Origin: an uncultured Chloroflexia bacterium
Lineage (GTDB): Bacteria > Chloroflexota > Limnocylindria > Limnocylindrales > CSP1-4
NCBI GenBank assembly: GCA_963764785.1
Contig: CAVXTU010000001.1
Location: forward strand, 930,643-994,642
Length of the DNA stretch: 64,000 nt
Direction: 5' to 3'
This document shows positions 33,333 to 56,871 of this stretch, piece after piece. The translations under genes were made by a program, and so were the position numbers. The notes beneath the pieces are model-generated. The model saw nothing but the letters and a program-made list of their open reading frames with translations, made no database searches and was not told where the DNA came from. Positions within the stretch are counted from its first letter, which is position 1, and the number at the start of each line of letters is the position of its first letter.

Positions 33333-33678
33333 GAGTCTGGAGATCGAAACGAACACACCGACATGACGTCGGCTGCTCGGGACGCGAGCGGCCATGCGCC
33401 GACCGGACGGGCCGACGGCCACCTCTCTCCTTCTCTCATCCGGACTATGACCGTCGGCTCCCTGCAAGGGATCCACCGCCACCGTGAGGTGGACGGGTCG
33501 TGGGCTGGCGGCCGGACCCTTGTCCTGAACCACCGACCACCGGTAGGGGATTTCACCCGACCCCGAAGGCGAGGCGTGCTATTGCGATGTTGTGACCTGA
33601 CTATACCAGCGCCGCAGGCCCATTCCTTGGACGCGATTCGTCCTGCTTGCCATCGGCCTATCGGCTACTGCACGTTCC

Positions 33679-37133: not shown

Positions 37134-38549
37134 GTGTTCTGGCGCAAGGCTGGCAGAATGCGGACTATGGCAATCATCGATGGTCGTGTCCACGACCCAC
37201 GTCGCAAGCGACTGTTCACGCTGGCCCTGTCAGCCCTGCTGCTCGCCGCGTTCGGCGCATCGGCCCCTGTTGTCGCCCAGGATGAGTCGCCGCCGCCCGC
37301 CCCCTCCGCCGCTTCGACGCCCCTGCCCACGGGTTTCACGCAGAAGATGGCGAACAAGATCGCTGCGGTCATCAAGGCGGTACATCCGGTTCGTGGACTT
37401 CCCGCCGCTGACGACGTCACCTATCGGGTCATCGATCCCGCCGAGTTCCTCTCCGAGGTCGATTCCCTCTTCCATGAGCAGTACAGCGACGCATACATGG
37501 TCGCCGAGGATGCGGCGTTCACCAGGCTGGGACTACTGAAGCCAGACGACGACCTCGAGCAGCTCACCCTTGACCTGTACGACAGTCAGGTGCTGGCCTA
37601 CTACGATCCTCGGACCACGACTTTCTCGCTTGTCGGCCCAGTGGACAACATCGGTTCCCTGGAGTCCATCGTGGTGGCGCATGAATACGAGCATGCACTG
37701 CAGGACGCAGCCTGGGGACTAGAGGACATACGGGTGAAGGATCTCGATCGTTCGGATGCCATCCTTGCCCAGCAGGCACTCATCGAGGGTGACGCCACCG
37801 CCGTCATGTATGACTGGGCCGCGCGTGAGTTGAAGCTATCGGACCTTTTGAAGGTCTCGGCCCAAGCGCTGACCAAGCAGGACCAGCGCCAGCTCAACCG
37901 AACGCCTGACATCCTGCAGCGTCAGCTGGAGTTCCCGTACATCGACGGCTACGCCTTCGTGAACGCCATCCGGGGGCGCGGTGACTGGGATGCCGTGAAT
38001 GCGGTTTGGGACGCCCAACCCGTCTCGACCGAACAGATCCTCCATCCCGAGCTCTATCCCGACGAGCTACCGGTGGACATCACCCTCCCTGACGTCGCTG
38101 CCGCTCTGGGACCGGGTTGGGTCACCTCGTATCAGCAGACCCTCGGTGAGATGCAGACGCATGTCTGGGTCGCCGACGGAGGCAAGGCTCGATCGCTATT
38201 TCCCGCGCTACCCGCCATGTTGCCCAACGCTGAGGCCGCCGCCGGTTGGGGCGGCGACCGATTGGTCAGTCTTGACGGTCCAGCCGGTGCCTGGGCTGTG
38301 GTGTGGCAGACCGATTGGGATAGCAAAGCTGACCAGAAGGAATTCTCCAAGGCGGCCCGCGCAGCCATGAAGGACCTACCCGGCGCTCACTCGGCGACGA
38401 ATACGGACATCGCTGGAGGGCTATCCTCTCCGGTACTCGTCATGGTGGCCGATAGCGAAGGGACGCTTGACGCCGTCAATGCGACCCTAAGCCTCGAATT
38501 CCTGACGCACACGTCGCCGACGAGTGAAGCGAGGAGCGGCGGACGATGA
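37134..38549 (+). CDS. Secreted HEXXH-containing protein (putative zincin-like metalloprotease); paralogous to the C-terminal domain of the giant PASTA protein
   Basis: Signal peptide; VVAHEYEHALQD (HEXXH). The C-terminal ~250 aa align to the 38638..48306 C-term (NAEAAAGWGGDRLVSLDGPAGAWAVVWQTDWDS vs ANAAAGWGGDRLVSLDGPDGSWAIVWQTKWDT). Confidence 0.55.
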   Translation: MFWRKAGRMRTMAIIDGRVHDPRRKRLFTLALSALLLAAFGASAPVVAQDESPPPAPSAASTPLPTGFTQKMANKIAAVIKAVHPVRGLPAADDVTYRVIDPAEFLSEVDSLFHEQYSDAYMVAEDAAFTRLGLLKPDDDLEQLTLDLYDSQVLAYYDPRTTTFSLVGPVDNIGSLESIVVAHEYEHALQDAAWGLEDIRVKDLDRSDAILAQQALIEGDATAVMYDWAARELKLSDLLKVSAQALTKQDQRQLNRTPDILQRQLEFPYIDGYAFVNAIRGRGDWDAVNAVWDAQPVSTEQILHPELYPDELPVDITLPDVAAALGPGWVTSYQQTLGEMQTHVWVADGGKARSLFPALPAMLPNAEAAAGWGGDRLVSLDGPAGAWAVVWQTDWDSKADQKEFSKAARAAMKDLPGAHSATNTDIAGGLSSPVLVMVADSEGTLDAVNATLSLEFLTHTSPTSEARSGGR

Positions 38550-38637: not shown

Positions 38638-41600
38638 ATGACTGATGAGAAGCCGGATACCGGCGACCCGACCGAGTCCACTGACCTCTCGCCCGCTCCA
38701 CCAGACCCGCAGACGCCCGACGCTGCCGCGGAGGAAGTGACTGGCGAGCCTGATGCGGACGCGGTCGATCCAGGCTCGGACTCTGTCCCGGAAGGCGCTA
38801 CTGAACCTGACGCTGACACCCCTGCGACGGATTCTGCTGCAGACCTCGATCCCGCTGCTGAGAGTAGTGCCGGGCCGGCCGCCGAAGTAGGTGCCGAGGC
38901 CGATGCCGATGCCGAGACCGATGCCGAGACCGATGCGGATCTCGAGGCCGATGCCGAGACCGATGCGGACCCCGAGGCCGATGCCGACGGTGGTAACGAG
39001 TCGGATGCCGCCCAGTCGATCGAAGCAGCTGATACCGATGTCGCGGCAGTGGCTGGTGCGGGAGTCGCAGGTGCGGCTTGGACCACCACGCCAGTCGCGC
39101 CTGATCCCGAGGCCACCGAAGCAGCGCTGGCAGCCCTGGCGGCCGGGCCTGAAGTCACGCTCGAGCCGCCCGATGGCCCGCCACCACCGCCTCCGCCCGG
39201 CGACGAGCCCCAGGACGAAGGTACGCCCATCCTGCTGGTGGGTGGCATCCTGGTGGGTGCCTTCATCGTCGCGCTTGCCATCGTCCTGATCCTGTTCCGG
39301 CCATTCGACTCGGGTGGGAACGCGATCCCGTCGCCGTCGCCGATCACGACCGAGGCTCCCAGCGCCAGTCCCAGCGCGATCACCTTCGTGGACACGCCCG
39401 AGTTCATCGGCGGGACCCTGGAAGAAGCGGAACTCAAGGCCGGGGACTACGGCCTCGTGGTGCGCGCCAATCCCGTGGAGGACGATAAGGTAAGTCCGAA
39501 CACAGTGATCGACCAGGATCCAGGTCCTGGAGAGTCTGTCGAGGTCGGTACGACCATCGAACTCTCGGTCGCCGTCCCCGTTCCTACGCATCCCGTCCCG
39601 GATGTCGTGAACATGTCCCAGGCAGACGCGATCGACGCGATCGAAGAGGCCGGCCTTGCGGTCGGCGACATCTCGAACGAGACCAGCGACAAGATCGTGG
39701 CCGGCAACGTCATCGACACCGACCCCGCGGTAGCGACCGAACTGCCGCTTGGAAGCAGCATCGATCTGGTCGTCTCCACCGGCCCGGCCCAGGTGGCCGT
39801 GCCCGACCTCGTCGACAGCCCCGAGGCCGACGTGGCCGCGGCCCTCGATGCCGTCGGCCTGGTCGCGGGTGACCGCACCGAGGCCGCCGACGAGAGCATC
39901 GTCGCGGGCAACGTCATCAGCACCGATCCGAGCGCCGCCAGCGAGGTCGACCCCGGTTCGGCCGTCGCCTACGTCGTCTCCACCGGCCCGGCCCAGGTGG
40001 CCGTGCCCGACCTCGTCGACAGCCCCGAGGCCGACGTGGCCGCGGCCCTCGATGCCGTCGGCCTGGTCGCGGGTGACCGCACCGAGGCCGCCGACGAGAG
40101 CATCGTCGCGGGCAACGTCATCAGCACCGATCCGAGCGCCGCCAGCGAGGTCGACCCCGGTTCGGCCGTCGCCTACGTCGTCTCCACCGGCCCGGCCCAG
40201 GTGGCCGTGCCCGACCTCGTCGACAGCCCCGAGGCCGACGTGGCCGCGGCCCTCGATGCCGTCGGCCTGGTCGCGGGTGACCGCACCGAGGCCGCCGACG
40301 AGAGCATCGTCGCGGGCAACGTCATCAGCACCGATCCGAGCGCCGCCAGCGAGGTCGACCCCGGTTCGGCCGTCGCCTACGTCGTCTCCACCGGCCCGGC
40401 CCAGGTGGCCGTGCCCGACCTCGTCGACAGCCCCGAGGCCGACGTGGCCGCGGCCCTCGATGCCGTCGGCCTGGTCGCGGGTGACCGCACCGAGGCCGCC
40501 GACGAGAGCATCGTCGCGGGCAACGTCATCAGCACCGATCCGAGCGCCGCCAGCGAGGTCGACCCCGGTTCGGCCGTCGCCTACGTCGTCTCCACCGGCC
40601 CGGCCCAGGTGGCCGTGCCCGACCTCGTCGACAGCCCCGAGGCCGACGTGGCCGCGGCCCTCGATGCCGTCGGCCTGGTCGCGGGTGACCGCACCGAGGC
40701 CGCCGACGAGAGCATCGTCGCGGGCAACGTCATCAGCACCGATCCGAGCGCCGCCAGCGAGGTCGACCCCGGTTCGGCCGTCGCCTACGTCGTCTCCACC
40801 GGCCCGGCCCAGGTGGCCGTGCCCGACCTCGTCGACAGCCCCGAGGCCGACGTGGCCGCGGCCCTCGATGCCGTCGGCCTGGTCGCGGGTGACCGCACCG
40901 AGGCCGCCGACGAGAGCATCGTCGCGGGCAACGTCATCAGCACCGATCCGAGCGCCGCCAGCGAGGTCGACCCCGGTTCGGCCGTCGCCTACGTCGTCTC
41001 CACCGGCCCGGCCCAGGTGGCCGTGCCCGACCTCGTCGACAGCCCCGAGGCCGACGTGGCCGCGGCCCTCGATGCCGTCGGCCTGGTCGCGGGTGACCGC
41101 ACCGAGGCCGCCGACGAGAGCATCGTCGCGGGCAACGTCATCAGCACCGATCCGAGCGCCGCCAGCGAGGTCGACCCCGGTTCGGCCGTCGCCTACGTCG
41201 TCTCCACCGGCCCGGCCCAGGTGGCCGTGCCCGACCTCGTCGACAGCCCCGAGGCCGACGTGGCCGCGGCCCTCGATGCCGTCGGCCTGGTCGCGGGTGA
41301 CCGCACCGAGGCCGCCGACGAGAGCATCGTCGCGGGCAACGTCATCAGCACCGATCCGAGCGCCGCCAGCGAGGTCGACCCCGGTTCGGCCGTCGCCTAC
41401 GTCGTCTCCACCGGCCCGGCCCAGGTGGCCGTGCCCGACCTCGTCGACAGCCCCGAGGCCGACGTGGCCGCGGCCCTCGATGCCGTCGGCCTGGTCGCGG
41501 GTGACCGCACCGAGGCCGCCGACGAGAGCATCGTCGCGGGCAACGTCATCAGCACCGATCCGAGCGCCGCCAGCGAGGTCGACCCCGGTTCGGCCGTCGC

Positions 41601-44600
41601 CTACGTCGTCTCCACCGGCCCGGCCCAGGTGGCCGTGCCCGACCTCGTCGACAGCCCCGAGGCCGACGTGGCCGCGGCCCTCGATGCCGTCGGCCTGGTC
41701 GCGGGTGACCGCACCGAGGCCGCCGACGAGAGCATCGTCGCGGGCAACGTCATCAGCACCGATCCGAGCGCCGCCAGCGAGGTCGACCCCGGTTCGGCCG
41801 TCGCCTACGTCGTCTCCACCGGCCCGGCCCAGGTGGCCGTGCCCGACCTCGTCGACAGCCCCGAGGCCGACGTGGCCGCGGCCCTCGATGCCGTCGGCCT
41901 GGTCGCGGGTGACCGCACCGAGGCCGCCGACGAGAGCATCGTCGCGGGCAACGTCATCAGCACCGATCCGAGCGCCGCCAGCGAGGTCGACCCCGGTTCG
42001 GCCGTCGCCTACGTCGTCTCCACCGGCCCGGCCCAGGTGGCCGTGCCCGACCTCGTCGACAGCCCCGAGGCCGACGTGGCCGCGGCCCTCGATGCCGTCG
42101 GCCTGGTCGCGGGTGACCGCACCGAGGCCGCCGACGAGAGCATCGTCGCGGGCAACGTCATCAGCACCGATCCGAGCGCCGCCAGCGAGGTCGACCCCGG
42201 TTCGGCCGTCGCCTACGTCGTCTCCACCGGCCCGGCCCAGGTGGCCGTGCCCGACCTCGTCGACAGCCCCGAGGCCGACGTGGCCGCGGCCCTCGATGCC
42301 GTCGGCCTGGTCGCGGGTGACCGCACCGAGGCCGCCGACGAGAGCATCGTCGCGGGCAACGTCATCAGCACCGATCCGAGCGCCGCCAGCGAGGTCGACC
42401 CCGGTTCGGCCGTCGCCTACGTCGTCTCCACCGGCCCGGCCCAGGTGGCCGTGCCCGACCTCGTCGACAGCCCCGAGGCCGACGTGGCCGCGGCCCTCGA
42501 TGCCGTCGGCCTGGTCGCGGGTGACCGCACCGAGGCCGCCGACGAGAGCATCGTCGCGGGCAACGTCATCAGCACCGATCCGAGCGCCGCCAGCGAGGTC
42601 GACCCCGGTTCGGCCGTCGCCTACGTCGTCTCCACCGGCCCGGCCCAGGTGGCCGTGCCCGACCTCGTCGACAGCCCCGAGGCCGACGTGGCCGCGGCCC
42701 TCGATGCCGTCGGCCTGGTCGCGGGTGACCGCACCGAGGCCGCCGACGAGAGCATCGTCGCGGGCAACGTCATCAGCACCGATCCGAGCGCCGCCAGCGA
42801 GGTCGACCCCGGTTCGGCCGTCGCCTACGTCGTCTCCACCGGCCCGGCCCAGGTGGCCGTGCCCGACCTCGTCGACAGCCCCGAGGCCGACGTGGCCGCG
42901 GCCCTCGATGCCGTCGGCCTGGTCGCGGGTGACCGCACCGAGGCCGCCGACGAGAGCATCGTCGCGGGCAACGTCATCAGCACCGATCCGAGCGCCGCCA
43001 GCGAGGTCGACCCCGGTTCGGCCGTCGCCTACGTCGTCTCCACCGGCCCGGCCCAGGTGGCCGTGCCCGACCTCGTCGACAGCCCCGAGGCCGACGTGGC
43101 CGCGGCCCTCGATGCCGTCGGCCTGGTCGCGGGTGACCGCACCGAGGCCGCCGACGAGAGCATCGTCGCGGGCAACGTCATCAGCACCGATCCGAGCGCC
43201 GCCAGCGAGGTCGACCCCGGTTCGGCCGTCGCCTACGTCGTCTCCACCGGCCCGGCCCAGGTGGCCGTGCCCGACCTCGTCGACAGCCCCGAGGCCGACG
43301 TGGCCGCGGCCCTCGATGCCGTCGGCCTGGTCGCGGGTGACCGCACCGAGGCCGCCGACGAGAGCATCGTCGCGGGCAACGTCATCAGCACCGATCCGAG
43401 CGCCGCCAGCGAGGTCGACCCCGGTTCGGCCGTCGCCTACGTCGTCTCCACCGGCCCGGCCCAGGTGGCCGTGCCCGACCTCGTCGACAGCCCCGAGGCC
43501 GACGTGGCCGCGGCCCTCGATGCCGTCGGCCTGGTCGCGGGTGACCGCACCGAGGCCGCCGACGAGAGCATCGTCGCGGGCAACGTCATCAGCACCGATC
43601 CGAGCGCCGCCAGCGAGGTCGACCCCGGTTCGGCCGTCGCCTACGTCGTCTCCACCGGCCCGGCCCAGGTGGCCGTGCCCGACCTCGTCGACAGCCCCGA
43701 GGCCGACGTGGCCGCGGCCCTCGATGCCGTCGGCCTGGTCGCGGGTGACCGCACCGAGGCCGCCGACGAGAGCATCGTCGCGGGCAACGTCATCAGCACC
43801 GATCCGAGCGCCGCCAGCGAGGTCGACCCCGGTTCGGCCGTCGCCTACGTCGTCTCCACCGGCCCGGCCCAGGTGGCCGTGCCCGACCTCGTCGACAGCC
43901 CCGAGGCCGACGTGGCCGCGGCCCTCGATGCCGTCGGCCTGGTCGCGGGTGACCGCACCGAGGCCGCCGACGAGAGCATCGTCGCGGGCAACGTCATCAG
44001 CACCGATCCGAGCGCCGCCAGCGAGGTCGACCCCGGTTCGGCCGTCGCCTACGTCGTCTCCACCGGCCCGGCCCAGGTGGCCGTGCCCGACCTCGTCGAC
44101 AGCCCCGAGGCCGACGTGGCCGCGGCCCTCGATGCCGTCGGCCTGGTCGCGGGTGACCGCACCGAGGCCGCCGACGAGAGCATCGTCGCGGGCAACGTCA
44201 TCAGCACCGATCCGAGCGCCGCCAGCGAGGTCGACCCCGGTTCGGCCGTCGCCTACGTCGTCTCCACCGGCCCGGCCCAGGTGGAGACACCTGACGTGCG
44301 CGGCATGTCACTCGAGGACGCACAGGCCGAAGCGGAGCTTTCTCGCCTCATCATGCAGACCACCGATGTCGAGACGAATGATGTCCCACCCGACACGATC
44401 GTTTCGCAGGATCCGGTCGGTGGAACACTCGTTGACGTCGGTTCGACCATCGTCGTCTCCGTTGCTGTGGCCATTCCTCCTGTCGCGGTGCCCGACGTTC
44501 GAAATCTCGCCGAGACGGACGCGATCGGTGCCATCCAATCCGCCGGTCTCAGCGTGGAACAGGTCGACGAACGTACCAATGCCACGGTCCCGGCTGGCGA

Positions 44601-47600
44601 GGCGGTCAGGACCGAGCCTGCGGCAGGCGAGATGCTCGAGGTCGGCTCATCGGTCGTCCTGGTCATGAGCAAGGGTCCCAAGCAGGTCGAAGTCCCAGAT
44701 ATCACGGGACTTTCGGAGGACGACGCGATCGGCGCCCTCCAGGGCGCCGAGTTGACTGCGGGCGAGGCCACGCAGCAGTTCAGCGACGCCGTAGCGGCAG
44801 GTGACGTCATCAGCTCCGATCCGGCGGCCGGCGCCACCGTCGACGCCGCCAGCACCGTCGACTATGTCGTCAGCCAGGGGGTCGAGCAGGTCGAGGTCCC
44901 CGATCTTTCCGGCCCCGCGGCCGACGCAGATCAGACTCTCATCGATGCCGGGCTCGTCGGGAGCAGCAGTGCCGACTTCAGCGGCAGCGTGCCCGTGGGT
45001 GAAGTCATCAGCCAGACTCCTGCCGCCGGCGACATCGTCGACATCGGTTCCTCCGTCGACTATGTCGTCAGCCAGGGCGTCGAACAGGTCAACGTTCCCG
45101 ATCTTTCCGGCCCCGCGGCCGACGCAGATCAGACTCTCATCGATGCCGGGCTCGTCGGGAGCAGCACTGCCGACTTCAGTGAAACCGTGCCTGATGGTGA
45201 CGTCATCAGCCAGGACCCCGCAGCCGGCGAGCCGGTCGACATCGGGTCCACGGTCGACTACGTGGTCAGCCAGGGACCCACGCCGATCGTCACGGTCCCG
45301 AACGTCCGCGATGTGCCTCAAGGCGATGCGGTCGCCTCCATCGAGGCCGAGGGCCTGGTGGTTGGTGAGACCGTCGAACAGTTCCATGAAAAGGTCGCAG
45401 CCGGCAACGCCATCAAGACCGATCCAGCCGCTGACTCCGAGGTCCCCATCGGATCGGCGGTTACGTTGTACGTCTCTAGTGGTCCGGCCACGGTCACCAT
45501 CCCCGAGGTCAAGGACACCCCTGCGGCCGATGCCCAGGCCACGCTCGAGGCCGAGGGCCTCGTGGTCAGCACCGAGGAACGCACCAACAGCAAGATCGCC
45601 GCGGGCAACGCGGTCAAGACCGATCCCGCCGCCGGCACCGACGTCGAGGCCGGTGCCACGGTCAGCCTCATCGTCAGCAAGGGCCCCAAGCCTGCCACGG
45701 TCCCCGACATCGTCGGTCTCCCCAGGGGCCAGGCCACCTCGGCCATCACCGATGCCAAGCTGAGCGTCGGCGCCGAGACCGTCGTGGCTGACCCGTCACC
45801 CAAGAACACCGTGCTGTCCCAGGATCCCCCGGCCGCTGCCGAGGTCCCCGAGGGCACCGCGGTCGATTACAGCATCAGCTCCGGTCCGGCCACGGTCACC
45901 ATCCCCGAGGTCAAGGACACCCCTGCGGCCGATGCCCAGGCCACGCTCGAGGCCGAGGGCCTCGTGGTCAGCACCGAGGAACGCACCAACAGCAAGATCG
46001 CCGCGGGCAACGCGGTCAAGACCGATCCCGCCGCCGGCACCGACGTCGAGGCCGGTGCCACGGTCAGCCTCATCGTCAGCAAGGGCCCCAAGCCTGCCAC
46101 GGTCCCCGACATCGTCGGTCTCCCCAGGGGCCAGGCCACCTCGGCCATCACCGATGCCAAGCTGAGCGTCGGCGCCGAGACCGTCGTGGCTGACCCGTCA
46201 CCCAAGAACACCGTGCTGTCCCAGGATCCCCCGGCCGCTGCCGAGGTCCCCGAGGGCACCGCGGTCGATTACAGCATCAGCTCCGGTCCGGCCACGGTCA
46301 CCATCCCCGAGGTCAAGGACACCCCTGCGGCCGATGCCCAGGCCACGCTCGAGGCCGAGGGCCTCGTGGTCAGCACCGAGGAACGCACCAACAGCAAGAT
46401 CGCCGCGGGCAACGCGGTCAAGACCGATCCCGCCGCCGGCACCGACGTCGAGGCCGGTGCCACGGTCAGCCTCATCGTCAGCAAGGGCCCCAAGCCTGCC
46501 ACGGTCCCCGACATCGTCGGTCTCCCCAGGGGCCAGGCCACCTCGGCCATCACCGATGCCAAGCTGAGCGTCGGCGCCGAGACCGTCGTGGCTGACCCGT
46601 CACCCAAGAACACCGTGCTGTCCCAGGATCCCCCGGCCGCTGCCGAGGTCCCCGAGGGCACCGCGGTCGATTACAGCATCAGCTCCGGTCCGGCCACGGT
46701 CACCATCCCCGAGGTCAAGGACACCCCTGCGGCCGATGCCCAGGCCACGCTCGAGGCCGAGGGCCTCGTGGTCAGCACCGAGGAACGCACCAACAGCAAG
46801 ATCGCCGCGGGCAACGCGGTCAAGACCGATCCCGCCGCCGGCACCGACGTCGAGGCCGGTGCCACGGTCAGCCTCATCGTCAGCAAGGGCCCCAAGCCTG
46901 CCACGGTCCCCGACATCGTCGGCATGCCCGAGGCTGATGCCATCAGCGCACTCCAGGCAGCCAACCTGGTGCCCGGCACTCCCACCGAGGTGATCGATGA
47001 GAGCGTCCCGGCCGGTCAGGTGATCGCTCAGGATCCGAATAGCGGAACCTCAGTACCGCAAGGGACGACTGTCGACTACACCATCTCCGCTGGAGCATCC
47101 GTCGAACCTCGCGGCGCGGGTGGTTCGCTCGACAACCCGACCCTCAGTGCCCAGCTCGATGAGGTCGCTTCCACGGTTCCGGACATCCGCCAGCTAGCGC
47201 TTGGGAACACGCCGTATGACGGTGCCAACCGGGCGGCGCAGGAGTCGCTGCTGTCAGAACGCTCGGCGGTCATGTATGACCCGTCGACTCTGGGCCAGGA
47301 ACAGGAAGCGCTGGCTCGCATGGGCCTGCTCGGTTCCGGTGATGATCTTGCGGCTCTGCTCGACGAGCTCTATGGCCAGAGCCTGCCGATCGCTTACATC
47401 GAGCAACGTGGCCGCCAGTCGATCCTTCAATCCATCGACAAATTCAGTGTCGCCCAACGGGCGGAAGCGGCACGGGAATTCGGTCGCGCCGCCACATCCC
47501 AGGCATTCGGGAGTGACGCGATCGGTGTTGGCGATGCCACCAACGGTGACCAGGCATTGGCCGGCGTCGCGCTCCAGCAGGGCGACGGCACCGTGGTCAT

Positions 47601-48306
47601 GCTGGACTGGTCAGCGGCGAACGTGGGCTCCAACAACCAGGCCAAGGTGGACGACGTCGTGGTGCCCGGCAGCGACAGCATCCTGTCATCGATGCCACAG
47701 CTGCTCCAGCGGGAGTACACCTTCCCGTTCCTTGAGGGTCGCAATTTTGTCGATCAGGTCAAGGGTGGGGACTGGGCGAATGTCGACGACGCCTGGAGCC
47801 AGCCACCGGAATCGACCGAGCAGGTCATGCACCCGAACAAGTACCGAAGCGATCGACCGACCTCGATCGACCTGGATGGCGTCGCCGGCCAGCTGGGTGG
47901 TGGCTGGTCGGAGCGATGGCAGCAGACCATGGGCGAGCTCCGCATCGGCGTCTGGCTGGCTGACGGTCAGCCCGGATCCCAGCAAGGTCCCAAGGCACCG
48001 GTGAAGCTGCCCAAGGCTAACGCGGCAGCTGGATGGGGAGGCGACCGACTTGTCAGCCTCGATGGCCCCGACGGCTCATGGGCCATCGTGTGGCAGACCA
48101 AGTGGGACACATCCGAAGACGTCGGCCAGTTCATCAAGGCTGCCAACGCCGCGGTCGCGGATCTATCGGGTGCACACGCTGTCGTACAGGCCGACGTCTC
48201 TGGCGGGCTGTCGGATCCGGCGCTGGTGCTCCTGGCCAGTGACGATGCCTCGCTCTCGCAGGTCGCTGCTGCACTGGGTGTGGATGTCGGCGCCGGCGGC
48301 TCGTAG
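38638..48306 (+). CDS. Giant (3222 aa) single-pass membrane protein: acidic low-complexity N-terminus, one TM helix, ~38-40 tandem PASTA domains, C-terminal domain homologous to the 37134 protein
   Basis: TM PILLVGGILVGAFIVALAIVLILF. The repeated 68-aa unit VPDLVDSPEADVAAALDAVGLVAGDRTEAADESIVAGNVISTDPSAASEVDPGSAVAYVVSTGPAQ fits the PASTA consensus (vPdvvG...A...L...Gl.v....e.s...gkVisq.P.aG..v..gs.v.l.vS.Gp). The single frame is uninterrupted. Confidence 0.8.
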   Translation: MTDEKPDTGDPTESTDLSPAPPDPQTPDAAAEEVTGEPDADAVDPGSDSVPEGATEPDADTPATDSAADLDPAAESSAGPAAEVGAEADADAETDAETDADLEADAETDADPEADADGGNESDAAQSIEAADTDVAAVAGAGVAGAAWTTTPVAPDPEATEAALAALAAGPEVTLEPPDGPPPPPPPGDEPQDEGTPILLVGGILVGAFIVALAIVLILFRPFDSGGNAIPSPSPITTEAPSASPSAITFVDTPEFIGGTLEEAELKAGDYGLVVRANPVEDDKVSPNTVIDQDPGPGESVEVGTTIELSVAVPVPTHPVPDVVNMSQADAIDAIEEAGLAVGDISNETSDKIVAGNVIDTDPAVATELPLGSSIDLVVSTGPAQVAVPDLVDSPEADVAAALDAVGLVAGDRTEAADESIVAGNVISTDPSAASEVDPGSAVAYVVSTGPAQVAVPDLVDSPEADVAAALDAVGLVAGDRTEAADESIVAGNVISTDPSAASEVDPGSAVAYVVSTGPAQVAVPDLVDSPEADVAAALDAVGLVAGDRTEAADESIVAGNVISTDPSAASEVDPGSAVAYVVSTGPAQVAVPDLVDSPEADVAAALDAVGLVAGDRTEAADESIVAGNVISTDPSAASEVDPGSAVAYVVSTGPAQVAVPDLVDSPEADVAAALDAVGLVAGDRTEAADESIVAGNVISTDPSAASEVDPGSAVAYVVSTGPAQVAVPDLVDSPEADVAAALDAVGLVAGDRTEAADESIVAGNVISTDPSAASEVDPGSAVAYVVSTGPAQVAVPDLVDSPEADVAAALDAVGLVAGDRTEAADESIVAGNVISTDPSAASEVDPGSAVAYVVSTGPAQVAVPDLVDSPEADVAAALDAVGLVAGDRTEAADESIVAGNVISTDPSAASEVDPGSAVAYVVSTGPAQVAVPDLVDSPEADVAAALDAVGLVAGDRTEAADESIVAGNVISTDPSAASEVDPGSAVAYVVSTGPAQVAVPDLVDSPEADVAAALDAVGLVAGDRTEAADESIVAGNVISTDPSAASEVDPGSAVAYVVSTGPAQVAVPDLVDSPEADVAAALDAVGLVAGDRTEAADESIVAGNVISTDPSAASEVDPGSAVAYVVSTGPAQVAVPDLVDSPEADVAAALDAVGLVAGDRTEAADESIVAGNVISTDPSAASEVDPGSAVAYVVSTGPAQVAVPDLVDSPEADVAAALDAVGLVAGDRTEAADESIVAGNVISTDPSAASEVDPGSAVAYVVSTGPAQVAVPDLVDSPEADVAAALDAVGLVAGDRTEAADESIVAGNVISTDPSAASEVDPGSAVAYVVSTGPAQVAVPDLVDSPEADVAAALDAVGLVAGDRTEAADESIVAGNVISTDPSAASEVDPGSAVAYVVSTGPAQVAVPDLVDSPEADVAAALDAVGLVAGDRTEAADESIVAGNVISTDPSAASEVDPGSAVAYVVSTGPAQVAVPDLVDSPEADVAAALDAVGLVAGDRTEAADESIVAGNVISTDPSAASEVDPGSAVAYVVSTGPAQVAVPDLVDSPEADVAAALDAVGLVAGDRTEAADESIVAGNVISTDPSAASEVDPGSAVAYVVSTGPAQVAVPDLVDSPEADVAAALDAVGLVAGDRTEAADESIVAGNVISTDPSAASEVDPGSAVAYVVSTGPAQVAVPDLVDSPEADVAAALDAVGLVAGDRTEAADESIVAGNVISTDPSAASEVDPGSAVAYVVSTGPAQVAVPDLVDSPEADVAAALDAVGLVAGDRTEAADESIVAGNVISTDPSAASEVDPGSAVAYVVSTGPAQVAVPDLVDSPEADVAAALDAVGLVAGDRTEAADESIVAGNVISTDPSAASEVDPGSAVAYVVSTGPAQVETPDVRGMSLEDAQAEAELSRLIMQTTDVETNDVPPDTIVSQDPVGGTLVDVGSTIVVSVAVAIPPVAVPDVRNLAETDAIGAIQSAGLSVEQVDERTNATVPAGEAVRTEPAAGEMLEVGSSVVLVMSKGPKQVEVPDITGLSEDDAIGALQGAELTAGEATQQFSDAVAAGDVISSDPAAGATVDAASTVDYVVSQGVEQVEVPDLSGPAADADQTLIDAGLVGSSSADFSGSVPVGEVISQTPAAGDIVDIGSSVDYVVSQGVEQVNVPDLSGPAADADQTLIDAGLVGSSTADFSETVPDGDVISQDPAAGEPVDIGSTVDYVVSQGPTPIVTVPNVRDVPQGDAVASIEAEGLVVGETVEQFHEKVAAGNAIKTDPAADSEVPIGSAVTLYVSSGPATVTIPEVKDTPAADAQATLEAEGLVVSTEERTNSKIAAGNAVKTDPAAGTDVEAGATVSLIVSKGPKPATVPDIVGLPRGQATSAITDAKLSVGAETVVADPSPKNTVLSQDPPAAAEVPEGTAVDYSISSGPATVTIPEVKDTPAADAQATLEAEGLVVSTEERTNSKIAAGNAVKTDPAAGTDVEAGATVSLIVSKGPKPATVPDIVGLPRGQATSAITDAKLSVGAETVVADPSPKNTVLSQDPPAAAEVPEGTAVDYSISSGPATVTIPEVKDTPAADAQATLEAEGLVVSTEERTNSKIAAGNAVKTDPAAGTDVEAGATVSLIVSKGPKPATVPDIVGLPRGQATSAITDAKLSVGAETVVADPSPKNTVLSQDPPAAAEVPEGTAVDYSISSGPATVTIPEVKDTPAADAQATLEAEGLVVSTEERTNSKIAAGNAVKTDPAAGTDVEAGATVSLIVSKGPKPATVPDIVGMPEADAISALQAANLVPGTPTEVIDESVPAGQVIAQDPNSGTSVPQGTTVDYTISAGASVEPRGAGGSLDNPTLSAQLDEVASTVPDIRQLALGNTPYDGANRAAQESLLSERSAVMYDPSTLGQEQEALARMGLLGSGDDLAALLDELYGQSLPIAYIEQRGRQSILQSIDKFSVAQRAEAAREFGRAATSQAFGSDAIGVGDATNGDQALAGVALQQGDGTVVMLDWSAANVGSNNQAKVDDVVVPGSDSILSSMPQLLQREYTFPFLEGRNFVDQVKGGDWANVDDAWSQPPESTEQVMHPNKYRSDRPTSIDLDGVAGQLGGGWSERWQQTMGELRIGVWLADGQPGSQQGPKAPVKLPKANAAAGWGGDRLVSLDGPDGSWAIVWQTKWDTSEDVGQFIKAANAAVADLSGAHAVVQADVSGGLSDPALVLLASDDASLSQVAAALGVDVGAGGS
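39777..44265 (+). repeat. 22 head-to-tail copies of a 204-bp unit (one PASTA domain each), apparently 100% identical at nucleotide level
   Basis: The junction 20-mer caccggcccggcccaggtgg recurs at exactly 39777+204n for n=0..22 (checked position by position). Confidence 0.85.
45481..46920 (+). repeat. ~3.6 copies of a 402-bp unit (two PASTA domains per unit), near-identical
   Basis: tccggtccggccacggtcaccatccccgaggtcaaggac recurs at 45481, 45883, 46285 and 46687; the protein unit is 134 aa. Confidence 0.8.
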
Positions 48307-50829: not shown

Positions 50830-51747
50830 CTATGTGCTAGCCATCGTCCCGTTCGCCAGTCTGACCGCGACGCCGGCCGCTTCGGTGATGCGATCCGGTA
50901 GCACCACGATACCGGCTTCGTGCGCATCCGCCCAGTGTGCATGCTTGCCGCCGACAGCAAGGACCGGGCTATGGCCAAGGCCCCGCAGCGCATGCGCGAC
51001 TGCGAGTGCAGCGGTCTGGTCCTCGCGCTGAACGACGGCGATGATGGCGACACGCGCACGGTTCTGCTCGATGACGTGAACCCAGCTGTTGACCGGTACG
51101 TCAGGGCCCAGATACAGCACGCCCACGCCCTGGCGGCGCACCGCCACTGAGAATGCCAGGGCACCCAATTCGTGCCGCGCCTTCGGCGGAAGGCCCACCA
51201 CCACGAGTGGTTCGCGCACCGCACCGGCAGCCTCGTAGAGGGCCGACAAGCGGCGGTGTACTGCCGCGCTCGCGGCATGCTCGGCGGCCACGTCGAGCTC
51301 TCCCGCGATCCATGCCTGGCCAAGCGCCACGAGAGCGGGCATCAACAGGTCGTCGACGATGGCTTCGAAACTGCCCTGGGCGAAGATCTCGTCGAGCGCC
51401 GCCCCGGTCGCCGCGATGTCCATGGCCTTGGCGGCTTCGGTGAAGCGGCCGATCAGCTCGGCTTGCCGTGCGTGTGCGGCGTCACCGCTCAGCGGCACCG
51501 AAGTGAGGTCAGGCGTGGGCGCGAGTTCCACCTCTCCGGCGAGTACGGCGCGACTGGCTTCGCTCGCAGTCCAGCCCGACTCGGTCAGTTCCCGGACACG
51601 GACAAGGGTCGCGATGGCGTCGTCGTCGTAGAGCCGGTAGCCCGACGGGGTTCGCTGCGGACTGACGACGCCGTAGCGCCGCTCCCACGCGCGGATCAGG
51701 GGAACGCTGACGCCGGACCGGATGGAGGCCTGCTTAATGCTGTACAT
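50830..51747 (-). CDS. litR: MerR-family regulator with C-terminal cobalamin-binding domain (LitR/CarH-type light-responsive regulator); probable start MYSIKQ at 51747
   Basis: N-term MYSIKQASIRSGVSVPLIRAWERRYGVVSP (MerR HTH). The C-term LVVVGLPPKARHELGALAFSVAVRRQGVGVLYLG...AIIAVV...LAVGG is a B12-binding Rossmann-like domain carrying the cobalamin His-ligand (DxHxxG-like) segment PKARHELGA. Confidence 0.7.
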   Translation of the reverse strand: MYSIKQASIRSGVSVPLIRAWERRYGVVSPQRTPSGYRLYDDDAIATLVRVRELTESGWTASEASRAVLAGEVELAPTPDLTSVPLSGDAAHARQAELIGRFTEAAKAMDIAATGAALDEIFAQGSFEAIVDDLLMPALVALGQAWIAGELDVAAEHAASAAVHRRLSALYEAAGAVREPLVVVGLPPKARHELGALAFSVAVRRQGVGVLYLGPDVPVNSWVHVIEQNRARVAIIAVVQREDQTAALAVAHALRGLGHSPVLAVGGKHAHWADAHEAGIVVLPDRITEAAGVAVRLANGTMAST

Positions 51748-51850
51748 CGTTTGTGCAATATAGCACGGCTTCGTTCCGTGACAAACACTTGACAATCATT
51801 GTACATATGCCCTATCCTCCGGGCATCAGGTACTACAAAGCCTGTACATA
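51739..51850. promoter_or_regulatory. Divergent promoter region with TGTACA-containing direct repeats (candidate LitR/CarH operator)
   Basis: TGTACA at 51740, 51800 and 51844, and ttgacaatcat-tgtacatatgc at 11-bp register; it lies between litR (-) and the DUF4397 genes (+). Confidence 0.5.
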
Positions 51851-52855: not shown

Positions 52856-53629
52856 TGACAAAGCAAGGTTCGGTCGGTCGCAAGAACAAGGTTCGAGATC
52901 CTCGCCACGACGGCTGCTCTCGCCGCCCTCATGGCCATCCCTGTCGCGACGACCGCTCAGGACGAGTCCATGGCTCCGACCGACGAGAACGCGATGGTGC
53001 GCGTCGGCCACTTCAGCCCTGACGCACCCGCCGTCGACATCTACGCCAACGGTGCCATCCTCGCGGGCCTCGAGGGCGTCGAGTTCGGCACACTCTCCGG
53101 TTACATCGAAGTGCCTGCGGACACCTACTCGATCGCGGTCGTGGTCGCCGGTCAGGACCCGGCTGACGCCACCGTCATCGGCCCCGCGGACATCCCTCTC
53201 GAGGCTGGTTCGAAGTCCACCATCGCCGCGACCGGTTTCGTCGCTGACATCGCTCCGGTCATCCTGAACGACAACGTCGACCTCACGGAGGGCCAGGCCC
53301 AGGTGCGCATCGTGCACTTCAGCCCGGACGCCCCTGCCGTCGACGTGGCGCCTGATGGCGCTGACGCCCTCCTGACCGACCTGGCCTTCCCGAACGACAC
53401 CGGCTATGTCGCGCTTGACGCTGGTGAATACGATCTCGAGGTCCGTGTCGCGGGTACCGAGGACGTCGCCATCCAGCTGGATCCCCTCGCGCTCGACGGT
53501 GATACCGCCTACAGCGTCTTCGCCATCGGCTCGCTCGCCGACGGCACACTCACCGCTCTGCCGGTCGTCGATGCGACCGCCATCATGGGCGACGAGATGG
53601 CCGCTGAGTCCCCTGAGGCCAGCGAATAG
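52856..53629 (+). pseudogene. DUF4397 protein copy 2; 1-nt insertion (aaggttcGagatcc) disrupts the signal-peptide region relative to copy 3
   Basis: ATG 52856 MTKQGSVGRKNKV then a frame change. Track ORF 52931..53629 starts at the internal Met and lacks a signal peptide. Confidence 0.5.
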
Positions 53630-53717
53630 CCAAGCATCCAACCCCCTTGATCCTGCCTGGTGGTCCGGTTTTGCCGGACCGCCAGGCTCCTTCATACCAA
53701 TAGGGAACACACGACTC

Positions 53718-55061
53718 ATGACAAAGCAAGGTTCGGTCGGTCGCAAGAACAAGGTTCAGATCCTCGCCACGACGGCTGCTCTCGCCGCCCTCATGGCCAT
53801 CCCTGTCGCGACGACCGCTCAGGACGAGTCCATGGCTCCGACCGACGAGAACGCGATGGTGCGCGTCGGCCACTTCAGCCCTGACGCACCCGCCGTCGAC
53901 ATCTACGCCAACGGTGCCATCCTCGCGGGCCTCGAGGGCGTCGAGTTCGGCACACTCTCCGGTTACATCGAAGTGCCTGCGGACACCTACTCGATCGCGG
54001 TCGTGGTCGCCGGTCAGGACCCGGCTGACGCCACCGTGATCGGCCCCGCGGACATCCCTCTCGAGGCTGGTTCGAAGTCCACCATCGCCGCGACCGGTTT
54101 CGTCGCTGACATCGCTCCGGTCATCCTGAACGACAACGTCGACCTCACGGAGGGCCAGGCCCAGGTGCGCATCGTGCACTTCAGCCCGGACGCCCCTGCC
54201 GTCGACGTGGCGCCTGATGGCGCTGACGCCCTCCTGACCGACCTGGCCTTCCCGAACGACACCGGCTATGTCGCGCTTGACGCTGGTGAATACGATCTCG
54301 AGGTCCGTGTCGCGGGTACCGAGGACGTCGCCATCCAGCTGGATCCCCTCGCGCTCGACGGTGATACCGCCTACAGCGTCTTCGCCATCGGCTCGCTCGC
54401 CGACGGCACACTCACCGCTCTGCCGGTCGTCGATGCGACCGCCATCATGGGCGACGAGATGGCCCGGGTTCGCGTGGGTCACTTCAGCGCTGACGCCCCC
54501 AACGTGGACGTCTATGCCAATGGTGGCCTGGCTCTGTCGGATGTCCCGTTCGGAGCGCTCTCCGGGTACCTTGAGGTCCCAGCTGGCACATATCGGTTCC
54601 AGGTGGTCCCGGCCGGTAACGCTCTTGAAGATGGCCCTGTGGTCATCGATGCCGAGGTCGACCTTGAAGGTGGCACGTCCACCACGGTGGCGGCGACCAA
54701 CGACCTCGCCAACATCGCCCCGGTCGTGATCAACGACCAGGCGGTCGCGTCAGGCCTCGAGGGTGCCAAGGTCCGAGTCGTCCACTTGAGCGCCAACGCG
54801 CCCAAGGTCGACATCGCCCCCGACGGTTCCGGCAAGGCGGGTGCGATCTTCAAGAACCTGAAGTTCGGTAAGGCCAAGGGCTACGCCGACGTTCCCGCTG
54901 GCGAGGTGGACCTGGAGGTCCGACCCGCTGGCAAGAAGAAGGCCGCTTTCGACATCCCGGCGCTCAGCCTGGAAGACGGCAAGGCCTACTCGGCGTTCGC
55001 CATCGGCCAGTTTCCCGACTCCTTCGACGTGATCCTGGTCGAGGAGGCCCTGGCCAGCTAG
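53718..55061 (+). CDS. DUF4397 secreted repeat protein, copy 3 (intact, longer; extra C-terminal DUF4397 repeats)
   Basis: MTKQGSVGRKNKVQILATTAALAALMAIPVATTAQDE..., then unique repeats ARVRVGHFSADAPNVDVYANG and AKVRVVHLSANAPKVDIAPDG. The track ORF starts earlier, in an alternate frame of copy 2. Confidence 0.7.
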   Translation: MTKQGSVGRKNKVQILATTAALAALMAIPVATTAQDESMAPTDENAMVRVGHFSPDAPAVDIYANGAILAGLEGVEFGTLSGYIEVPADTYSIAVVVAGQDPADATVIGPADIPLEAGSKSTIAATGFVADIAPVILNDNVDLTEGQAQVRIVHFSPDAPAVDVAPDGADALLTDLAFPNDTGYVALDAGEYDLEVRVAGTEDVAIQLDPLALDGDTAYSVFAIGSLADGTLTALPVVDATAIMGDEMARVRVGHFSADAPNVDVYANGGLALSDVPFGALSGYLEVPAGTYRFQVVPAGNALEDGPVVIDAEVDLEGGTSTTVAATNDLANIAPVVINDQAVASGLEGAKVRVVHLSANAPKVDIAPDGSGKAGAIFKNLKFGKAKGYADVPAGEVDLEVRPAGKKKAAFDIPALSLEDGKAYSAFAIGQFPDSFDVILVEEALAS

Positions 55062-56795: not shown

Positions 56796-56871
56796 TTGTG
56801 GAGGCGGCAACAGTTCGTCGGCTGTGATCGACTGGTCGTGCTCGGGACGACGGGTTTGTGTCAAGACGCCA

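Follow-up and report, generated by a model that had tools for sequence, protein, structure and literature searches.

Periscope proteins (Whelan et al. 2021, PNAS), such as SasG/Aap with their G5-E domains, Rib/alpha C and the SHIRT-containing Sgo_0707, are single-chain surface proteins with a stalk of DNA-identical repeat domains. The number of repeats varies between relatives, and the far end of the stalk bears a distinct domain. Long reads reveal the arrays, on which short-read assemblies fail. The operational definition of the class asks for repeats longer than 50 amino acids with at least 80% identity (PMC8201768).

PASTA domains occur in Ser/Thr kinases such as M. tuberculosis PknB, S. 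aureus and B. subtilis PrkC/Stk1 and S. pneumoniae StkP. In these kinases a transmembrane helix is followed by PASTA domains, and a linear organisation has been documented for PASTA ectodomains (PMC3601408). Class B PBPs, including PBP2x, PBP2B and S. aureus PBP1, also have extracytoplasmic PASTA domains. A third family, DUF8575 (PF26686), is large, with 5,594 representative clusters, and its members conserve the motif HExxH...EGDAT. One member, the Haloferax Sec lipoprotein Hvo_1808, is associated with the cell and has no known function (PMC2945643).

One gene in the window, a stretch of 64,000 nucleotides from an uncultured soil Chloroflexota bacterium, is related to these systems. From its N-terminus the encoded protein has an acidic region, a transmembrane helix, a series of 38 PASTA domains and lastly a DUF8575-like head, and the gene contains three separate repeat zones, A, B and C (Table 1). 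An initial annotation of this DNA had described a perfectly periodic array of 22 units of 204 bp within a coding region, which is borne out by TRF, by lag-204 identity and by the open reading frame itself. It had missed that the units are PASTA domains, that a second perfect array follows, and that both belong to a giant, apparently membrane-anchored stalk gene with conserved synteny.

Table 1. Features of the giant gene and its surroundings (positions in the window).
Feature	Position	Strand	Description or basis
Upstream paralog, 471 aa	37134..38549	+	signal-peptide-like N-terminus and DUF8575 with intact HEYEH...EGDAT
Giant gene, 3,222 aa	38638..48306	+	ORF list, translation, Pfam PASTA matches along full length
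N-terminal region, about 197 aa, acidic Pro/Ala/Thr-rich low-complexity	38638..39228	+	translation, composition
In-frame 12/18/30-bp minisatellite in N-terminal region	38892-38987		TRF
Transmembrane helix ILLVGGILVGAFIVALAIVLILF, aa 198-220	39229..39297	+	read from translation
Ser/Pro-rich linker after transmembrane helix	39298-39390		translation
PASTA domains 1 and 2, unique	39391..39795	+	own PASTA HMM; unit identity matrix
Alternate-frame ORF, 1,639 aa	39749..44668	+	frame 2; sole alternate-frame ORF spanning array A
Array A	39769..44284	+	204 bp x 22.14, 100% identical; TRF, lag-204, 20-mer count
PASTA domains 25-30, single-copy	44284..45495	+	TRF, own PASTA HMM, unit identity matrix
B-zone diverged pair, within domains 25-30	44800-45275		198 bp x 2.4, 85% identical
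Array C, domains 31-37	45481..46922	+	402 bp x 3.59, 100% identical; TRF
PASTA domain 38, last and unique	46903..47103	+	own PASTA HMM
C-terminal head, about 400 aa, DUF8575 (PF26686) / Hvo_1808-like fold	47104..48306	+	includes stop codon

TRF reports array A with a period of 204, 22.1 copies, 100% matches, 0 indels and a score of 9032, leaving no divergence among units. A lag-204 comparison returns a single unbroken run of identity (39769..44080 plus 204, or 4,516 bp and 22.14 copies) with zero mismatches, and 22 of 22 in-register units are free of mismatches. The absence of substitutions, first noticed in the translated units, is therefore complete in the nucleotides as well. The two 204-bp blocks that follow the array differ from the unit at 115 and 132 positions. 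For the junction 20-mer CACCGGCCCGGCCCAGGTGG the count is exactly 23, at the 204-bp spacing first reported, from 39777 in steps of 204 through 44265, against 0 expected from 100 shuffles. Because 39777 and 44265 are the first and last positions of this 20-mer, they are not the true boundaries of the array. These lie at 39769, between ...atcgatctg and GTCGTCTCC, and at 44284, between ...CAGGTGG and agacacc.

Since 204 bp correspond to 68 codons, the reading frame is preserved across the array. Array A encodes PASTA domains 3-24 (Pfam; own PASTA HMM), each of 68 residues (AVPDLVDSPEADVAAALDAVGLVAGDRTEAADESIVAGNVISTDPSAASEVDPGSAVAYVVSTGPAQV), so that one unit is one PASTA domain with its linker. 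Its GC content is 75.5% and its GC3 94%. The count of 22 is the copy number as assembled, and polishing of the consensus could remove rare unit variants. PASTA domain 2 shares 63% nucleotide identity with the amplified unit. In array C, where exact lag-402 identity extends over 45481..46520 plus 402, the unit consists of two PASTA domains in alternation.

The initial annotation had also set aside antisense and alternate-frame ORFs across the array as artefacts of the repeat. For the alternate frame this stands: the single spanning ORF has a Ser/Pro/Arg/Ala-rich translation and was rejected as a gene, being a by-product of a stop-free frame, and the PASTA HMM matches frame 1 alone. The antisense part does not stand, since no antisense ORF spans array A and each unit has just a 52-aa one.

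The giant protein has a mass of 316 kDa, a pI of about 4, 540 Asp and Glu against 97 Lys and Arg residues, and no cysteine. Its N-terminal 197 or so residues, 55 of them acidic and 1 basic, are presumed to be cytoplasmic; over about the first 145, nucleotide-level conservation is absent in orthologs. The protein would be oriented with its N-terminus inside and its C-terminus outside, an orientation and export route suggested by analogy with other PASTA proteins. The only arginine adjoining the helix is on its C-terminal side, and the positive-inside rule is not clearly obeyed.

The order of helix and PASTA domains is that of the PASTA kinases, and NCBIfam PknB_PASTA_kin aligns with residues 196-377 through positions 332-492, the transmembrane and PASTA part of the Stk1 kinase model. 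Assignment to this family (NF033483) was rejected, the score being 71 bits against a cut-off of 450, with the transmembrane and PASTA part alone covered. Residues 1-377 contain no Pkinase match, and Pfam finds PASTA alone there; the place of the kinase is taken by the acidic low-complexity region. The protein differs further from the kinases in having 38 PASTA domains, compared with 3-4 in the cited kinase structures, in the identity of adjacent domains and in the additional C-terminal head. Membership of the class B PBPs was likewise rejected, as the transpeptidase domain is absent: over all five segments of the protein Pfam gives PASTA as the sole family above cut-off.

Every unit of array A matches Pfam PASTA end to end. 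Three units were modelled together with AF2 (pLDDT 95.6, pTM 0.66). Each is predicted to adopt the alpha plus three-beta PASTA fold at a pLDDT higher than 90, and 3ouv, a single PASTA domain of PknB, superposes on a model unit at an rmsd of 1.3 A. All three domains of the model align with S. aureus PrkC (3py9, E 5e-15; 3m9g, TM 0.58) and with Mtb PknB (5e12). These linear ectodomains are its best match, with about 200 columns aligned at TM 0.5-0.58. The model does not fit the compact PASTA arrangement of PBP2x (TM 0.25, rmsd about 16 A). On this model the chain would be a linear rod, as the PknB and PrkC ectodomains are. Each PASTA domain adds 3-4 nm in such structures, and at that spacing the chain could project the head 100 nm or more from the membrane. 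The stalk may, however, be more than a passive spacer, given that muropeptides and lipid II are among the ligands that PASTA domains are able to bind.

The head is a candidate member of PF26686, to which its close homologs have precomputed matches. Against NCBIfam Hvo_1808_fam (NF038145) it gives an E-value of 8e-24 and 84.6 bits, and the upstream paralog 150.5 bits; both are below the 200-bit cut-off. By the gluzincin pattern, HExxH...EGDAT appears to be a zinc site. The upstream paralog has it intact (VAHEYEHA and EGDAT) and, with its signal-peptide-like N-terminus, is a putative secreted zinc metallopeptidase. In the head the ligands are swapped, with AAREFGRA (R-E-x-x-R) in place of VAHEYxHA and QGDGT in place of EGDAT. 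The motif is lost in 15 of 15 PASTA-fused heads of this clade, whereas stand-alone paralogs keep an intact site. Because the zinc-binding residues are lost, the head can be regarded as a pseudo-metallopeptidase, which probably binds rather than cleaves. Its AF2 model has a pLDDT of 94.4, and a Foldseek search for solved structural relatives found none (best E 0.2, not significant). The paralog ends 88 bp before the giant gene on the same strand, and no terminator-like site was found between the two. It keeps this position at 10 of 11 orthologous loci (at L004 and L005 as established by blastn); the remaining contig, L003, is cut off upstream by its end.

The 11 syntenic orthologs come from Limnocylindrales-like Chloroflexota in independent Nanopore long-read metagenome assemblies. 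All contain the same three array zones in differing copy number, namely A 2.8-22, B 2.4-26 and C 3.5-5.6 double units, numbers that are approximate because the read N50 of about 6 kb (PMC12313526) is close to the array lengths and several assemblies contain frameshift errors. The total across the set is 24-44 PASTA domains per protein. B is the expanded zone in 11 of 11 orthologs, and in the window it is A instead.

Within each genome the array units are 97-100% identical, compared with 70-78% nucleotide identity between genomes. A homogenising or very recent amplifying process is therefore required, which agrees with the earlier remark that perfect identity would be hard to maintain without gene conversion. 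The A unit of the window clusters with the 204-bp units of L001, L002, L004 and L005 at the same 70-78%, the level of background divergence for this comparison (ArgRS 74-77%, head 66-74% identity) and of flanking single-copy genes. Strains that share 96-99% identity in flanking genes still differ in their assembled copy numbers. L006 and L008 are 98.6% identical in ArgRS, yet have 19.9 and 18.0 B copies whose units are merely 75-88% identical, and L002, at 95.6% ArgRS identity, has 9.6 B copies. Sister-group contigs with 95.6-98.6% ArgRS identity have 3.6 or 4.6 C units, in metagenome assemblies that contain errors. A search for a close relative of the window's own species found none.

Array A probably belongs genuinely to a chromosomal gene and forms a periscope-like, variable-length rod kept by recombination or slippage between its identical units. 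Its 68-residue units, in 22 copies with 100% nucleotide identity, exceed both the length and the identity used to define the periscope class, and by Pfam and the AF2 prediction they would fold individually. The 22 identical copies would make up the bulk of the extracellular chain of 38 PASTA domains, anchored by the N-terminal helix and capped by the DUF8575 domain. Because the units are identical and their length is a multiple of three, unequal homologous recombination or replication slippage could insert or delete entire domains and still leave the reading frame intact. Stalk length would then shift rapidly between lineages and set how far the head projects, and we infer that this variation is a selected function.

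Perfect tandem arrays are difficult to assemble, and the initial annotation's warning of collapse or expansion was reasonable: the L003 contig ends inside its array, and nearly every homolog from short-read metagenomes is a truncated fragment on a contig of 1-5 kb. The related MAGs were built from reads whose N50 is close to the array lengths and polished with one Medaka round. An assembler or the consensus polishing might therefore have produced the length or the perfect identity of an array that does exist. This is improbable, as the array divides exactly into codons, each of its units makes up a complete PASTA domain, and the 9.7-kb ORF stays open without frameshifts in the window, as it does over 9.7 kb in L005. 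In the 11 independent assemblies, near-perfect arrays of similar length occupy the corresponding places in the gene, and the amplified unit is orthologous to those of other genomes at background divergence. Conservation of the gene in synteny makes a pure artefact unlikely. If the array is real, its length might still be non-adaptive, with slippage or recombination inflating any duplicated unit in a neutral or mildly deleterious runaway that is merely tolerated. The choice of expanded zone does look arbitrary among lineages, and the GC and GC3 enrichment of amplified units is expected of recombination-associated biased conversion rather than selection. Such a runaway is very improbable, however, given that, of the 11 genomes in which the gene is complete, 10 keep a total of 31-44 PASTA domains despite the wide ranges of A and B, that a large A zone in the window makes up for its minimal B zone, and that gene, synteny and head are conserved over lineages just about 75% identical in DNA. 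The misfolding cost of tandem identical domains (PMC8201768) also argues for a benefit.

That benefit might lie in avidity rather than reach. The amplified PASTA domains would then act as a multivalent cell-wall binder or sensor, tuned by copy number, that holds on to peptidoglycan stem peptides, muropeptides or lipid II along the wall and so tethers or localises the head and perhaps the adjacent protease. Homologs are annotated by JGI as "beta-lactam-binding protein with PASTA domain", and ligand-type repeat domains such as LysM can have an additional role (Whelan et al., PMC8201768). The PknB and PrkC PASTA ectodomains bind muropeptides or lipid II (PMC3601408; PMC6428115). We nevertheless consider this rather unlikely, since the amplified zone varies by lineage (A in the window, B elsewhere), as would be expected if generic length or number mattered more than one specific binding unit. 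In the characterised kinases ligand binding is known for only some PASTA domains, and a linear chain of 38 would be far longer than the wall is thick; both points count against avidity.

The periscope-like rod departs from described periscope proteins in several ways. Its stalk is built from PASTA, which goes unmentioned in two periscope-protein papers, two supplementary files of the 2021 paper and two surveys of fibrillar adhesins. Compared with the LPXTG proteins its polarity is reversed, with an N-terminal membrane anchor, a C-terminal head and no LPXTG motif. The head is a degenerate metallopeptidase-like domain, three array zones expand independently, and the host is a soil bacterium rather than a pathogen. 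We tentatively suggest an undescribed periscope-like class in Limnocylindrales-like Chloroflexota. Its PASTA rod of about 35 domains would be held at nearly constant total length by selection while zones are replaced within species-level time, and its dead head would cooperate with the secreted, active paralog, perhaps by serving as a decoy or as a tethered receptor for substrate.

The periscope class was defined on cultured bacteria with long-read genomes, most of them pathogens, and the same principle appears here in uncultured soil Chloroflexota. PASTA, which has so far been known from cell-wall kinases and PBPs as a short sensor module, would serve here as stalk material with the opposite anchoring. 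If this is true, PASTA would for the first time be seen in the role of a structural ruler or stalk instead of a sensor, and the finding would extend periscope proteins, in reversed polarity, to environmental monoderm phyla. Short-read metagenomes systematically break up genes of this kind, whose annotation then reads no more than "PASTA domain-containing protein, partial".

Twelve alleles with three independently evolving array zones provide a concrete system for the rate of array turnover, for selection on total stalk length and for the GC enrichment of repeats by recombination. For the DUF8575 family, the locus offers a first structural context, an active-looking secreted form beside a dead, stalk-mounted one.

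The giant gene of the window contains a tandem repeat that is exact at the DNA level. The initial annotation had described this repeat, array A, as a perfect 204-bp periodicity of 22 copies inside a coding region. This is fully borne out by Tandem Repeats Finder, by a lag-204 self-comparison of the window, in which identity forms one continuous run of 4,516 bp, and by the open reading frame of 3,222 codons in which the array lies in frame. The lack of substitutions, first seen in the translated units, extends to the DNA: lag-204 comparison finds 0 mismatches in 22 of 22 in-register units. The two 204-bp blocks beyond the array differ at 115 and 132 positions. A 20-mer at the unit junction recurs 23 times at exact 204-bp spacing, the same count as before, from 39777 + 204k up to 44265; shuffled sequences predict none. 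The limits originally assigned to the array, 39777-44265, are the first and last occurrences of this 20-mer, and the real edges lie at 39769 and 44284.

Open reading frames in other frames had been considered artefacts of the repeat. This stands for the single frame-2 ORF that spans the array, which is a by-product of a stop-free second frame in the unit. As a gene it is rejected: its translation is Arg/Pro/Ala low-complexity sequence, and the PASTA HMM matches frame 1 only. The claim fails for the antisense strand, where no ORF crosses the array in the window because each unit carries just one antisense ORF of 52 aa. Long antisense ORFs do run across the arrays of two orthologous loci, L004 and L005.

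Features of the window (positions of the whole stretch)
Feature	Coordinates	Strand	Description
FMN riboswitch (RF00050)	33424-33574	-	83.4 bits, full length
DUF8575 paralog	37134-38549	+	adjoins the giant gene upstream, 88-bp gap
Giant gene	38638-48306	+	PASTA stalk and C-terminal head
Minisatellite	38892-38987		in-frame, 12/18/30-bp
Frame-2 ORF	39749-44668	+	rejected as a gene
Array A	39769-44284		period 204, 22.1 copies, matches 100%, indels 0
Zone B array	44800-45275		198 bp x 2.4, identity 85% (diverged)
Array C	45481-46922		402 bp x 3.59, 0 mismatches; unit is an alternating PASTA pair
MerR-type regulator	50830-51795	-	B12-binding domains; CarH-like light or B12 sensor architecture
DUF4397 protein	53406-55061	+	551 aa, four DUF4397 repeats
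ORF containing the ASdes match	55863-57122	-
ASdes sRNA, borderline Rfam match	56407-56474	+	40.3 bits; gathering score 40

Pfam scans that cover the giant protein in five segments place PASTA (PF03793) alone above its cut-off. An HMM made from the protein's own units recognizes 38 consecutive PASTA domains, every one in frame 1. In order, these are two unique domains, 22 identical 68-aa domains, six that occur singly, seven belonging to a second array (array C, unmentioned in the initial annotation), and one unique domain. Membership in the PASTA kinases or the PBPs was tested and rejected: Pfam and NCBIfam reveal no kinase or transpeptidase domain in the protein, and these are the catalytic domains that define the two groups.

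The N-terminal ~197 residues are acidic, Pro/Ala/Thr-rich and of low complexity, with 55 acidic residues and 1 basic residue. A minisatellite in this region encodes DAETDAETDADLEADAETDADPEADAD-like repeats, and the DNA of the region is not conserved in orthologs. Residues 198-220 form one hydrophobic helix, which is followed by a Ser/Pro linker. The whole protein has a mass of 316 kDa and a pI of ~4, and contains no cysteine.

Eleven orthologous loci, L001-L011, were retrieved from the Microflora Danica project, on MAGs and contigs labelled 'uncultured Chloroflexia'. A convergent arginyl-tRNA synthetase (ArgRS) gene lies 3' of the giant gene in 11 of 11, and a metallo-beta-lactamase-fold gene and the DUF8575 paralog lie upstream in all but L003, whose upstream side is cut by the contig end. 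Short fragments of the protein family carry the names Chloroflexota or Candidatus Limnocylindrales at NCBI. No relative closer than ~77% DNA identity was found by exact look-ups of the ArgRS and giant protein, a GTDB scan, or a search of JGI metagenome contigs with a unit-A 36-mer. All 11 loci have large near-perfect PASTA arrays, placed in the gene in the same three zones as in the window and with different copy numbers. The unit is 204 bp in zone A, 198-202 bp in zone B (402 bp denotes pairs), and about 400-410 bp, again pairs, in zone C.

Copy numbers of the repeat units in the three zones, and total PASTA domains, in the window and the orthologous loci
Locus	Zone A	Zone B	Zone C	PASTA total
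Window	22.1	2.4	3.6	38
L001	9	15	4.5	35
L002	6.1	9.6	3.6	24
L003	not seen (contig end)	at least 18 (runs off contig)	none (diverged)	at least 30
L004	4.8	17.7	none (diverged)	34
L005	2.8	13.2 (402 bp)	5.6	44
L006	5.1	19.9 (100%)	4.6 (100%)	38
L007	4.1	18.0	3.6	33
L008	5.1	18.0	4.6	36
L009	3.1	16.0	5.6	34
L010	9.0	7.7 (402 bp)	3.5	36
L011	3.1	13.0	3.6 (72%)	31

Such arrays raise the question of whether they were made by the assembler. The Microflora Danica data consist of Nanopore reads (median N50 6.1 kb) assembled with metaFlye and polished with one round of Medaka (PMC12313526). Arrays of this kind can break long-read assemblies, as seen in L003, whose contig CAVORC010000035 stops inside its 201-bp x 18+ PASTA array (L003 1-3642). 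It is possible that assembly or polishing has distorted the exact number of 22 copies or the identity of the units, but it is unlikely that it accounts for the existence of the array. A pure assembly artefact is very unlikely, since independent assemblies share the architecture, the units are in frame, and the 9.7-kb frame is unbroken. The giant gene of L005 is likewise an intact ORF, of 3,235 aa.

When all PASTA-coding units are clustered, unit A of the window groups with the 204-bp units of L001, L002, L004, and L005. Between genomes, orthologous A units have 70-78% DNA identity, compared with 97-100% within a genome. The A units have diverged as much as ArgRS and the head, for which identity between genomes is 74-77% and 66-74%, respectively. 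On this comparison of sequences, homogeneity within genomes and divergence between them is a signature of recent lineage-specific amplification or concerted evolution. A dN/dS estimate between orthologous A units was discarded as uninformative, with GC3 at ~94% and one pair out of register; its usable part gives amino-acid identities of 60-79%. Zone C arrays are perfectly homogenised in L001, L005, and the window. Zone C domains are old and diverged in L003 and L004 (identities of 68-77% and 55-62% within the two alternating types).

A possible case of replacement of a whole array is that of L006 and L008. Their ArgRS genes are 98.6% identical and their A-unit consensus sequences are the same. 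Their B arrays (L006 4304-8252; L008 4234-7844) have 19.9 and 18.0 copies of 198-bp and ~200-bp units, respectively, with 75-88% identity, and the L006 B unit is nearer to the B unit of L007 (87%), a more distant locus. An array may thus have been replaced between strains, either because a different variant was amplified anew or because recombination took place with another lineage. L002, with an ArgRS identity of 95.6%, carries 9.6 B units, and its C units number 3.6 against 4.6. Array turnover appears to be fast.

The zone that is expanded also differs. Zone A forms the bulk of the stalk only in the window (1 of 12 genomes); elsewhere this is zone B, expanded to 9.6-26 domains in 11 of 11 orthologs. 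The PASTA total nevertheless stays at 31-44 in 10 of the 11 genomes with a complete gene, and that of the window is typical. Total stalk length may be under selection, a hint given by essentially one independent zone swap. Amplified units in the window (arrays A and C) are richer in GC than the gene's own single-copy PASTA units (75.5% versus 64.9%; GC3 94% versus 76.5%), and the same direction is found in L001, L003, L004, and L005. The excess may reflect recombination-associated GC-biased gene conversion.

The head, comprising the last ~400 residues, has no match in the local Pfam copy. Close homologs of the head are assigned in precomputed annotation to PF26686 (DUF8575), a family of 5,594 representative clusters. 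It matches the NCBIfam model of the Hvo_1808 family surface protein weakly, below the cut-off (E 8e-24); Hvo_1808 itself is a functionally uncharacterised Sec lipoprotein, found associated with haloarchaeal cells (PMC2945643). An AlphaFold2 model of the head, built from 60 homologs, is an alpha/beta structure with a pLDDT of 94.4. The PDB yielded no match by sequence or by profile, and Foldseek gave no significant match to a solved structure (best E 0.2); its weak matches include M1 zinc metallopeptidases and the PknH and TiME ectodomains.

The upstream paralog begins with a signal-peptide-like N-terminus. In the family alignment, the motif VVAHEYxHALQD...EGDAT is kept in the paralog, which has HEYEH...EGDAT, and in all 44 stand-alone members. 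HExxH with a downstream Glu is the pattern of gluzincin-type metallopeptidases, and from this pattern a zinc site may be inferred. The head has REFGR...QGDGT, and 15 of 15 PASTA-fused heads of its clade have AAREFGRA...QGDGT, so that both His and the distal Glu are replaced. The head can be read from its sequence as a pseudo-metallopeptidase that retained the fold and lost the metal site. Among other PASTA-DUF8575 fusions with few PASTA domains, some retain HExxH (P0048, P0062, P0134). It has been lost in differing ways in P0144 (at least 11 PASTA domains) and P0172 (four).

Conserved adjacency of this active-looking secreted paralog suggests that it and the giant protein cooperate; how they might do so is speculation. 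A promoter and terminator scan of the gap between the two genes gave no informative sites, and the consensus used may not suit this phylum. The MerR regulator and the DUF4397 protein are conserved downstream in orthologous contigs, as are a fasciclin-domain protein and glycosyltransferases, which suggests an envelope-related neighbourhood. The ASdes match is probably not an sRNA and reflects conserved coding sequence of a desaturase; it sits within an ORF, and the syntenic site in L001 is a fatty-acid desaturase gene (PF03405).

The shape of the stalk was approached with an AlphaFold2 model of three A units (pLDDT 95.6, pTM 0.66). MAFFT mis-registered the triple-domain alignment, A2, which was still used because its columns stayed domain-homologous. 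The best matches of the model, across all three domains, are the linear PASTA ectodomains of S. aureus PrkC (3py9, 3m9g) and M. tuberculosis PknB (5e12); the compact PBP2x pair fits poorly. The linear arrangement of kinase PASTA domains is experimentally established (PMC3601408). By analogy with these kinases, we infer an N-in, C-out topology. The protein would then most likely be an extended, strongly acidic PASTA rod with a pseudo-peptidase head at its tip. At roughly 3-4 nm per domain, as in PknB and PrkC, such a rod would be at least 100 nm long.

The PASTA chain may instead be a multivalent binder of peptidoglycan or lipid II rather than a spacer, a reading compatible with the variation in length. 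Array expansion may also be neutral, though conservation of total length and of the gene itself speaks against this.

A comparable class is that of the periscope proteins, whose operational definition asks for repeats above 50 aa that are 80% identical or more (PMC8201768). The repeats of the giant protein fall within this definition, and their assembled copy numbers vary among relatives. In four respects the protein stands apart from all described examples: its stalk consists of PASTA domains, its anchor is an N-terminal transmembrane helix with the head at the C-terminus, that head is a degenerate DUF8575 domain, and its host is an uncultured soil Chloroflexota bacterium. PASTA is unmentioned in two periscope papers (PMC8201768, PMC9704523), in two supplementary files of the 2021 paper, and in two fibrillar-adhesin surveys, and a search of the literature on giant PASTA arrays, on DUF8575, and on PASTA in Chloroflexi turned up no earlier description. 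For periscope proteins, repeat number has been proposed to change by unequal recombination or replication slippage (PMC8201768, PMC9704523). In the giant gene, where every 68-codon unit is an identical copy of the next, either process would add or remove whole PASTA domains.
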